Shown here piece after piece: positions 27,001 through 30,000 of a stretch of 30,285 nt of DNA. Source of the DNA: a virus. Lineage: Duplodnaviria > Heunggongvirae > Uroviricota > Caudoviricetes. Made by a program: the position numbers. Each line of letters opens with the position of its first letter. Position 1 is the first letter of the stretch. Location: the IMG/VR virus record IMGVR_UViG_2703718804_000003, one strand, 5' to 3'.

Positions 27001-30000
27001 GATTTGTGATTTAAGTCGGATAATTGTCGTTGCCATTAAGCAGAGGATTGATGACCTACAGGGTGGCATTGTTAGAATAAGACTTATTCTTATCTGTGCC
27101 GGGAATGAAAATGAAAAGAAACCTTCCGTTAATTATTTTGTTGTCTTCTCTGGTTATGGGCTGTACGCAACATAAAACAGATATGCCCCGACAGTTGGTT
27201 AAGGCATTACCACAATATCCGGCCTATGCAGCGGCAAATTATATAAAGGGACGGGTTGATGTGAAGTTTGATATTGGTGCTGATGGTACTGTCACCCGAA
27301 TTGAGTTTATCCGTTCAGAGCCGCACCATTTGTTTGATGAGCAGGTTGTAAAGGCGATGGCAAAATGGCGATTTGAGAAGGACAGGCCGTGTAAAGGCGT
27401 GAAGAAAACGTTTATCTTTAGTCCTTCTGCACCCTGATTATTTCATCAGAAATTAATTATCACTCTGTTGTTATTCTGTACATCCCGGCAGGGTAAGTCT
27501 TGTTCCGTCGGATATGAAGATGAAATATTGTTGGAGGACAGTGGGTACCTGCTCCTGTAACCGAACGTTCATTTCTCGTTATTTTTCATGCTGGCCGGGC
27601 GCAGATGCGTTGCATCTGTTGCCAGCCTTCTCCTGCAGGCTTCAATAACCCACGCTGAAAAGTTTCCTGAACCTTTCAGATCAAGAGCGATGTTAATTTG
27701 TTCAATCATCTGGTTTGGAAATCGGATGTTGCGGGTTGTTGTTCTGCGGGTTCTGTTCTTTGATGACATAATGTTTCCCCATATTCAGTGTTGCTGATTT
27801 GTATTATCTGAAGTTGCTTTTACGTTAATTTGATGCAGATCAATCAATACGATACCTGCGTCATAATTGATTATTTCTCGTGGTTTGATGGCGTACACAC
27901 ATGTTGTGATAAACCTTATATAGATGATAATCATTATCATTTCGTGGGTCCTTTCCGGCGATCCGGGCCGTTACGGGGCGGCGACCTCGCGCGTTTTCGC
28001 TATTTATGAAAATTTTCCGGGATCCATGTCCGGTTTCTCTTCAAGTTAACTATATGAAAAATATAAAAACAGGTCTTCTGTGAACCGGACATGAACAAAA
28101 AACAGACATGTAAACCGGACATGGCCGGTTTTGTTGTGATTGTGAGGTGAGAGTTTTTGCGAGGTGAGGAGTGGCTACGCAGACTGAAGTTGCCAGGCAT
28201 TTAAGTCTGACCGATCGCCAGCTTCGCAGATTGCAGAAATTGCCGGGTGCCCCGATATCGAATAAGCGAGGGCAACTGGATCTGGATGCCTGGCGCGATT
28301 TTTACATATCGTATCTGAGAAGAAGTAAAAACGATGTGCCTGATGGCGATAGCGAAGACGACTATGAGGAGAAATTGCTTATTGCCAGATGGGAACTGAC
28401 AGCAGAACAAGCTGTTACACAGCAGTTAAAAAATGAGGTGTCAAAAGGAAAACTTATTGACACCGGGTTCTGTATTTTTGCCCTCAGCAAGCTGGCAATG
28501 GCGTTATCCAGTACGCTTGATTCCATCCCTTTATCCATGCAACGACAGTTTCCTGATTTAACACCGCGCCATCTTGACCATCTGAAAACCCTTATTGCGA
28601 AGGGGGCAAATCAGTGTGCGCGGGCAGGGGATAAATTACCGGATTTACTCGATGAATATATCAGAGCAACAACTGAATAATATGATGAGTGCTGTCACAA
28701 CAGCATTACAGCCCCTGATAAGGGCATTGCCGGTGACGCCAGTTGAATGGGCTGATCAAAATTATTATCTGCCTAAAGAATCCTCATACGGTGACGGAGA
28801 ATGGAAAACGCTGCCGTTCCAGGTCGCCATTATGAACTGTATGGGTAACGACCAGGTTCGCACGGTTAACCTGATTAAATCTGCCCGTGTTGGCTATACA
28901 AAGATGTTGCTGGGGGTGGTCGGGTATTTTATTGAGCATAAATCACGAAACAGTCTGCTTTTTCAGCCCACGGATTCTGCCGCTGAAGATTTTATGAAGT
29001 CTCACGTGGAGGCGACGATTCGGGATGTGCCATGCCTGAAAGACCTTTCCCCATGGCTGGGTCGTAAACATCGTGATAATACCCTCACGCTGAAACGTTT
29101 TTCATCGGGCGTGGGTTTCTGGTGCCTGGGCGGGGCTGCCGCTAAAAACTACCGTGAAAAATCCGTGGACGTGGTCTGCTATGACGAACTTTCCTCGTTC
29201 GAACCGGATGTCGAAAAAGAGGGTTCGCCAACCCTGCTTGGGGATAAACGTATTGAGGGCTCTGTATGGCCCAAATCCATTCGCGGCTCGACGCCTAAAA
29301 TCAAAGGCACCTGCCAGATCGAAAAAGCGGCCAACGAGTCGGCGCATTTCATGCGTTTTTATGTGCCCTGCCCACACTGTGGGGAGGCGCAGTATCTGAA
29401 ATTTGGCGATGAATCCACGCCTTTTGGCCTTAAATGGGAGAAGGACAGCCCCGAAAGCGTTTTCTACCTCTGTGAACATCATGGCTGCGTGATCCATCAG
29501 TCTGAGCTTGACCAGAGCAACGGGCGGTGGATCTGTGAAAACACGGGGATGGGGACCCGTGACGGTCTGACGTTTTTCAGCGCCGCGGATAATGAAATTC
29601 CGCCGCCGCGATCCATCACGTTCCATATCTGGACGGCGTACAGTCCGTTCACCACCTGGGTACAGATTGTCTATGACTGGCTGGATGCACTGAAAGATCC
29701 CAACGGCCTGAAAACCTTTGTGAACACCACGCTGGGCGAGACCTGGGAAGAGGCCGTGGGCGAAAAACTCGATCACCAGGTACTGATGGATAAGGTCGTG
29801 CATTACACGGCGGCGGTGCCAGCCCGGGTGGTTTATCTGACGGCGGGCATTGACTCGCAGCGAAACCGTTTTGAGATGTATGTCTGGGGATGGGCTCCGG
29901 GAGAGGAAGCCTTTCTGGTGGATAAAATCATCATTATGGGACGTCCTGATGAGGAAGAGACGCTGTTACGTGTGGATGCGGCGATCAACAAAAAATACCG

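Follow-up and report, generated by a model that had tools for sequence, protein, structure and literature searches.

The prophage DNA of IMG/VR virus record IMGVR_UViG_2703718804_000003 (a caudoviricete; 30,285 nucleotides, the whole of which is referred to here as the window) carries the Shiga toxin genes stx1A and stx1B and, toward its right end, a Fur operator core beside the phage cos site. The core, TGATAAT-C-ATTATCA (TGATAATCATTATCA; 27925–27939), lies between cos and a small minus-strand gene initially annotated as encoding a ribbon-helix-helix (RHH) protein. It is the same element as the nohA and nohB Fur sites of Escherichia coli K-12, and it is probably bound with high affinity by Fe2+-Fur as an operator within the conserved left flank of a lambda-type cos.

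The core agrees with the 7-1-7 form of the Fur motif, TGATAATnATTATCA, at 14/14 positions, and a near-symmetric extended form, AGATGATAATCATTATCATTT, spans 27922–27942. The 30-kb window was scanned for the 7-1-7 core with up to two mismatches, and the expectation was taken from shuffled sequences. Two matches were found in the whole window, namely the cos-proximal site with no mismatch and the box at the stx1 promoter with two, where the shuffles gave 0.12. Other phage DNA totalling 1.07 Mb contained one perfect match and eight matches of at least 12/14. Because these shuffle and background rates are so low, the cos-proximal site is not a chance match, and the sequence is confirmed as a real Fur motif. 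The initial annotation had described a 19-mer that agrees with the Fur consensus (GATAATGATAATCATTATC) in 15 of its 19 positions, with the last 15 contiguous. That score is correct for 27920–27938 (ATAGATGATAATCATTATC), and the coordinates 27921–27939 need to be shifted accordingly. Its description of the surroundings also agrees with the sequence: the site falls between the RHH gene, with its ATG at 27769, and cosQ at 27946–27952; the distance of about 150 bp upstream of the minus-strand gene corresponds to 151–169 bp from the ATG; and the AT-rich segment 27770–27960 has a G+C content of 36% as compared with 48% in the whole window.

The element is shared with well-studied genomes. An alignment of the sequence from the RHH gene to cosN shows ~87% identity to the right end of lambda, and the intergenic region is ~87–90% identical throughout to the ylcI–nohD region of DLP12, the ynfO–nohA region of Qin and the lambda right end. 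In lambda the orthologue of the Fur core occupies 48452–48466. All 19 bases of 27921–27939 (TAGATGATAATCATTATCA) are identical in Qin; a 19-bp frame centred on the palindrome has one difference between the window and Qin, and the core differs from that of DLP12 solely at the central base. Just upstream of the core the window has a 7-bp insertion that is missing from lambda, DLP12 and Qin. The published centre of the nohA Fur site, 1634624 in U00096.2, was converted via the gene ends given by Chen et al. to 1636600 in NC_000913.3, the middle position of the Qin palindrome (1636594–1636606).

The accessible text of Chen et al. (2007, PMC2189734) assigns 25.3 bits to the nohB Fur cluster, the third-strongest in the E. 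coli genome, and 22.3 bits to the nohA site, which has a weaker overlapping site 6 bp away. The same text reports that an oligonucleotide containing the nohA site was gel-shifted by 150 nM Fur and, citing Vassinova & Kozyrev 2000, that a nohA fragment was recovered in an earlier Fur-binding selection; the words "lambda", "cos" and "prophage" do not occur in its searchable portion. On the authority of Chen 2007 and Vassinova 2000, nohA is also counted as a Fur-repressed operon by Myers et al. (2013, PMC3688515). Since the Qin orthologue was both gel-shifted and recovered in the selection, Fur binding to this element may be regarded as essentially established already from the Qin copy. Occupancy of the window copy by Fur in vivo is to be expected with considerable confidence. 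The proposal of a second Fur site in the prophage is likewise very probably right in so far as the orthologous Qin site is Fur-bound; its assignment as the promoter of the RHH gene is not sustained, as discussed below. The Stx1 prophage thus carries two strong Fur sites, because its cos-proximal copy is a Fur site already catalogued in K-12.

A survey of lambda-type cos sites was used to establish what the motif travels with. The cos collection was made by patterns that did not include the Fur motif, to avoid bias: cosN alone in viral contigs (at least 120 loci), and cosQ-gap-cosN in one genome per species. The pattern scan of genome contigs returned mostly high-GC chance matches and lambda contamination, with about a dozen usable enterobacterial loci. 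Removal of the high-GC chance matches left 158 cos instances, which represent 28 unrelated far-upstream contexts. A match of at least 11/14 to the 7-1-7 core, 3–10 bp before cosQ, was found in 121 of the 158 instances and in 17–18 of the 28 contexts, while the background rate elsewhere in the same loci predicts 0.0015 motif matches per site. The gap between motif and cosQ is 4–8 bp in most lineages.

The RHH gene is present at 88 of the 158 cos sites, every one of which also carries the motif. A further 33 instances, from at least 14 contexts, have the motif and no RHH homologue within 1.5 kb; their upstream neighbour is usually a plus-strand gene that ends 28–220 bp before cosQ. The motif occurs in lambda itself, in 434-type phages, and in phages 21 (TGATAATTATTCTCG), phi80 (TGATAATTATTATCA) and N15 (CGATAACTATTATCG, overlapping the gp59 stop codon). 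The homology of phi80 to the window begins exactly at the motif. Neither Pfam nor NCBIfam gave a match for a phi80 open reading frame (ORF) annotated as "putative Fur-regulated protein". Since 33 motif-bearing sites are devoid of the RHH gene, the motif travels with cos and not with that gene, and sequence comparison indicates that the Fur motif is linked to cos. The Fur site itself is known; its linkage to cosQ across lambdoid phages is a context absent from the literature searched. Neither this linkage nor the FNR promoter described below is mentioned in that literature, in which the older lambda papers are incompletely covered, and the papers and curated phage records examined make no mention of a Fur operator beside cosQ. 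The presence of the operator beside cosQ in lambda, 434-type phages, 21, phi80 and N15 is a context that may be of use to phage biologists.

The pattern of conservation is consistent with constraint on the motif. Across contexts, high information content is confined to the interval from about −7 to +17 relative to the 15-mer. Identity between contexts is 77% at the 14 motif positions, 52% in the variable cosQ–cosN spacer and 36% in the 15 nt to the left, a contrast between motif and spacer that is inflated because the contexts were chosen for having the motif. In 33 unique sequences from the closest relatives there is hardly any variation at the 14 specified bases, and the central base is T (26 sequences) or C (7). 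The dyad is retained in symmetric variants, for example GATAACCGTTATC and GATAACTGTTATC, the motif scores fall into two groups (at least 11 and at most 8) with no gradual decay, and a TTT following the dyad is conserved across contexts.

The RHH gene appears to have a promoter of its own. It encodes a 66-residue YlcI/YnfO (DUF3950) protein on the minus strand (27569–27769; Pfam PF13132, E = 5e-19; NCBIfam NF041551; RefSeq). A single-sequence AlphaFold model of this protein, poor in quality with a predicted local distance difference test (pLDDT) score of 60, has helices at residues 19–31 and 36–56 after an extended N-terminus and leaves the RHH fold unconfirmed; the protein has no sequence relative in the PDB. 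The short palindrome noted in the initial annotation upstream of the gene is real, fits better at 27830–27843 (TTGATGCAGATCAA), and is an exact FNR box, TTGAT-N4-ATCAA, oriented here with the minus strand and the only exact one in the window. A predicted −10 hexamer, GATAAT (GACAAT in lambda), lies 21 nt downstream of the box at 27803–27808 on the minus strand. Transcription from A27795, a start that is predicted and not measured, would place the centre of the FNR box at −41.5 and give a leader of ~25–26 nt with GGGGA before the ATG. A class II FNR promoter was defined by TTGAT-N4-ATCAA near −41.5 and a matching −10, with no −35 needed, and all of these sequence features are found upstream of the YlcI/YnfO gene. 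The Fur site would be at about −137 relative to this promoter.

The two boxes are conserved along different lines. The FNR box is conserved in lambda, DLP12 and Qin. It is also unchanged in a divergent relative (RHH protein 72% identical) in which the stretch separating the box from the Fur motif has drifted. At the 88 RHH-positive cos sites the box is exact in 77 and matches at 9/10 in 10; at the 70 RHH-negative sites it is exact in three. The FNR box therefore tracks the RHH gene, the Fur motif tracks cosQ, and the FNR-type candidate is both the closer and the better one, which speaks against the earlier designation of the Fur box as the RHH-gene promoter. It is likely that the Fur site is not the main promoter of this gene, and the sequence features point to a class II FNR promoter as the element that most likely drives YlcI/YnfO separately. 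Taken together, the FNR and Fur boxes suggest that oxygen and iron, both signals of the gut, are sensed at the right end of lambdoid genomes.

Lambda (NC_001416) itself has an intact, unannotated 64-residue YlcI homologue at complement(48109..48303), with its FNR box at 48364–48377; the annotated plus-strand gene lambdap79 (47738–47944) is directly to the left of it. In the window, a 69-residue ORF opposite the RHH gene (27588–27797) has no family match. Myers et al. (2013, PMC3688515) report a chromatin immunoprecipitation sequencing (ChIP-seq) peak for FNR under nohA with its summit at 1634625 (U00096.2), and no FNR-dependent expression change for the nohA operon. The summit (about position 2601 of the Qin locus, L004) falls on the Qin Fur palindrome, at a distance of 88 bp from the FNR box, and the remaining peaks of the table all coincide with known, strong Fur sites (PMC3688515). 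For these two reasons the peak is treated as ambiguous. The position of the summit on the Fur palindrome raises the question of what the FNR antibody signal reports.

How the operator might act can be outlined as follows. In iron-replete cells a Fur dimer, together with a weaker second dimer offset by 6 bp, would occupy the palindrome and would silence any transcription starting there. Such occupancy would block initiation because both arms read GATAAT, resembling a −10 hexamer. Bound Fur would probably also hinder un-antiterminated rightward transcription into the prophage cos and the terminase operon, and iron limitation would relieve the block. That the regulated output is rightward transcription into terS and terL is a tentative proposal, held with less than even confidence; the start of terS is 239 bp to the right of the centre of the Fur site. 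In the window a sigma-70-like sequence, TTGTGA-16 nt-GATAAT, is found at 27904–27931 on the plus strand, with the left arm of the Fur core as its −10, and it points toward cos and terS. Capsid-bearing satellite-like loci of the L037 type, in which the motif is absent, have a strong intrinsic terminator that abuts cosQ at the equivalent position (−15.5 kcal/mol, z = −3). Selection may thus have favoured a block to unscheduled rightward transcription ahead of cos and the terminase genes, although this is no more than a hint.

Several observations weigh against this account. The promoter scan gave one site where shuffles gave 1.7, and hence did no better than chance; the TTGTGA-16-GATAAT sequence depends on the lineage-specific 7-bp insertion absent in lambda, DLP12 and Qin. 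A conserved plus-strand −35 was sought across contexts, and three of 17 had at least 4/6 matching bases against a background of 13.6%, which is no enrichment; no minus-strand −35 was seen near the motif by eye. In virion linear DNA, cleavage at cos separates the Fur site from terS. At least seven cos contexts with downstream Nu1 and A genes are without the motif, which is thus dispensable, and the contexts compared are not fully independent since one ancestral cos is common to all. Finally, fur is unmentioned in the accessible main text of a genome-wide screen of the Keio collection for lambda host factors. Other products of the region were considered as well. Rfam gave no credible family match there. 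A 51-residue minus-strand ORF that starts from the palindrome (27785–27940) has no Pfam match and is disrupted by the 7-bp length difference from lambda; a 59-residue plus-strand ORF, also with no Pfam match, crosses cos; both were rejected as coding candidates.

The initial annotation had suggested an iron-responsive promoter, possibly for the RHH gene or a non-coding transcript. Spelled out, this would be a leftward promoter, derepressed by iron limitation, with the right arm of the palindrome (GATAAT on the minus strand) as its −10, which would serve the RHH gene through a ~155-nt leader or yield a non-coding RNA, and which could perhaps act alongside the FNR promoter. In its favour, the RHH gene is accompanied by the motif at all 88 sites, the 155-bp intergenic region is conserved nearly like coding sequence, and K-12 ynfO and ylcI diverge from the same Fur site. 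The arrangement is nevertheless unlikely: the 33 RHH-free sites from at least 14 contexts, including those of phi80, N15 and phage 21, carry the motif with mostly a plus-strand gene upstream; the minus-strand −35 position falls in the cosQ flank and reads TCGCCG or CGCCGG, a poor match; the scan yields no minus-strand promoter; a much better FNR-type promoter lies ~25–26 nt from the ATG; Rfam has no family matching the region; and the frame of the 51-residue ORF would be shifted by the indel relative to lambda. A different kind of proposal puts the function in cos itself. That lambda-like phages keep a Fur operator 4–8 bp before cosQ as a functional cos accessory, acting on the packaging motor or terminase or insulating cos and the terminase operon, is rather doubtful; if true, it would couple host iron status to terminase expression or to cos cutting. 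The narrower version, in which Fur bound before cosQ is an architectural factor or roadblock that slows terminase and aids packaging termination, is improbable to a slightly greater degree. Its attraction is the fixed position of the motif before cosQ in most of ~18 contexts, whatever the flanking genes, and the start of phi80 homology exactly at the motif. The analogy would be with IHF, which aids packaging initiation at I1. Packaging from left to right means that the motor meets the motif immediately before cosQ (PMC4669245). Against such a role, cosQ is defined as 7 bp and termination is reported in the same source to need only cosQ, cosN and I2. The Nu1/A contexts and satellite-like loci without the motif indicate by comparison that it is not a packaging requirement, and its spacing to cosQ varies by about half a helical turn. 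The silence of the Keio screen's main text on fur counts against this role too.

The motif could also have no function of its own. It would then be a relic, rich in A and T, that is carried along with cosQ since recombination junctions tend to fall to its left, and Fur binding would be incidental. Dispensability in several lineages, the lack of a conserved promoter architecture and descent from one ancestral cos would all fit. Against that explanation, the cosQ–cosN spacer and the 4–8 bp gap have diverged in sequence and length and the motif stays at 11–14/14, it is the unspecified central base that varies, the dyad is kept in the symmetric variants, and the scores split into two groups rather than grading downward. 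This explanation is given as little credence as the architectural role at cos. Least probable by far is a role of the palindrome at the RNA level, as a hairpin such as a weak terminator with its TTT run, or as a binding site for a protein other than Fur, for instance IHF or FNR. The conserved TTT after the dyad and the FNR ChIP-seq summit on the Qin copy (PMC3688515) are compatible with these possibilities. The predicted folds are weak, however, at −2.9 to −8.6 kcal/mol with z from −1.5 to +0.4, so that the stems are no better than those of shuffles and the hairpin or terminator was rejected. By inspection the motif contains no IHF consensus (WATCAANNNNTTR) and no FNR half-site, and IHF and FNR were set aside as its ligands. 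The true FNR box 88 bp away in Qin may explain the ChIP-seq peak, and Fur binding has been shown directly according to the accessible text of Chen et al. (PMC2189734). A Fur operator carried in the left flank of cos is retained as the probable identity of the element.

The cos site to which the operator belongs is of the lambda type. The packaging-termination subsite cosQ (GGGTCCT, plus strand) at 27946–27952 follows the Fur core on its right at a distance of 6 bp, in alignment with lambda 48473–48479; an identical 7 bp is labelled cosQ in the curated records of phages 21 and 434, where nothing is annotated at the Fur motif. The cohesive-end 12-mer of cosN, GGGCGGCGACCT, lies on the plus strand at 27976–27987; in the alignment, GTTACG is where the right end of lambda terminates. 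With the cosN 12-mer, cosQ 23 bp to its left and a base-for-base alignment with the lambda right end, the site has the features of a lambda-type cos. The Fur core is to the left of cosN at a distance of 36 bp.

To the right of 28018 the window diverges from the lambda-type sequence of DLP12 and Qin. A cosB-like region at 28025–28123 contains three exact copies of AACCGGACATG, at 28025–28035 on the minus strand and at 28083–28093 and 28113–28123 on the plus strand; four matches with at most one mismatch were found as compared with 0.46 expected. These repeats, one inverted and two direct, stand where DLP12 and Qin have a lambda-type cosB. Because they replace it, the sequence implies a packaging specificity unlike that of lambda, although cosQ and cosN are identical to those of lambda. 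The terminase small subunit gene of the Nu1 family follows on the plus strand at 28171–28680 (Pfam Phage_Nu1, E = 1e-18; RefSeq "terminase small subunit"). The RefSeq annotation of identical E. coli prophage copies agrees with the gene assignments made here. Matches to some part of this 1.7-kb region occur at ~11,900 places in 4,545 genomes.

On the other side of the RHH gene, a lipoprotein with a TonB C-terminal domain is encoded on the plus strand at 27096–27437. A perfect 8-1-8 palindrome, AGAATAAG-A-CTTATTCT, at 27074–27090 ends 6 bp before the GTG start of this gene (27096); it may be an operator, and its match to the Fur 19-mer is only 13/19. Several lambdoid phages encode small lipoproteins of this type, with a TonB C-terminal domain, in the interval from the lysis genes to cos, at the position of lambda bor, as in the window, in phage 21 (L219, 1–169) and in L007 (~730–1110 bp to the left of cosQ). 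A protein of this kind could disturb TonB-dependent uptake or TonB-dependent phages and colicins.

Two other types of locus were encountered in the cos survey. Some viral contigs (L037, at 1584–2200, and L006, L013, L015, L028, L039, L068 and L096) have two convergent lambda-type cos sites ~0.5–0.9 kb apart near capsid genes. Neither cos of these contigs carries the Fur motif, and at one of the two the strong intrinsic terminator abuts cosQ. The contigs resemble satellites, possibly capsid-forming phage-inducible chromosomal islands (PICIs). Contigs of about 1x coverage from Oceanobacillus profundus (L134), Neobacillus notoginsengisoli (L162) and Shewanella canadensis (L167) end in a lambda cos. 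With 48,542 bp, one of them has approximately the length of lambda, and these contigs look like contamination with lambda control DNA.

The operator can be compared with several known systems. Like the established subsites of lambda cos (cosQ, the "R4" region; cosN; I2; and cosB with the IHF site I1), it is located in the cos flank, and it shares with I1 the binding of a host protein. Unlike them, it is outside any defined subsite, is unannotated, and is absent from several functional-looking cos sites. The Fur box of the stx1 promoter (19655–19674; core 19655–19669) resembles the cos-proximal site in matching the 19-mer at 15/19 positions. Its core carries two mismatches to the 7-1-7 form whereas the cos-proximal core has none, which makes the latter the better match. 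The stx1 box is ~100–120 bp upstream of stx1A (19775–20731; stx1B follows at 20741–21010), the target assigned to it initially, in contrast to the cos-proximal site, which is without a clear promoter or target.

In combining a strong Fur box with an exact FNR box, the region also resembles the promoters co-occupied by FNR and Fur that Myers et al. place in "category 4", such as feoABC, among which the Qin copy is listed as nohA (PMC3688515). It differs from them in that the two boxes are 95 bp apart (88 bp in Qin), with the FNR box following the RHH gene and the Fur box following cos. The closest counterparts are the K-12 nohA and nohB sites, which, as in the window, lie between a ylcI or ynfO gene and a gene for a Nu1 homologue. 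In the accessible parts of the K-12 papers these Fur sites are assigned to the noh genes only. The window copy is distinguished from them by its place in an apparently intact Stx1 prophage, by a different cosB and terS, and by the 7-bp insertion upstream of the core.

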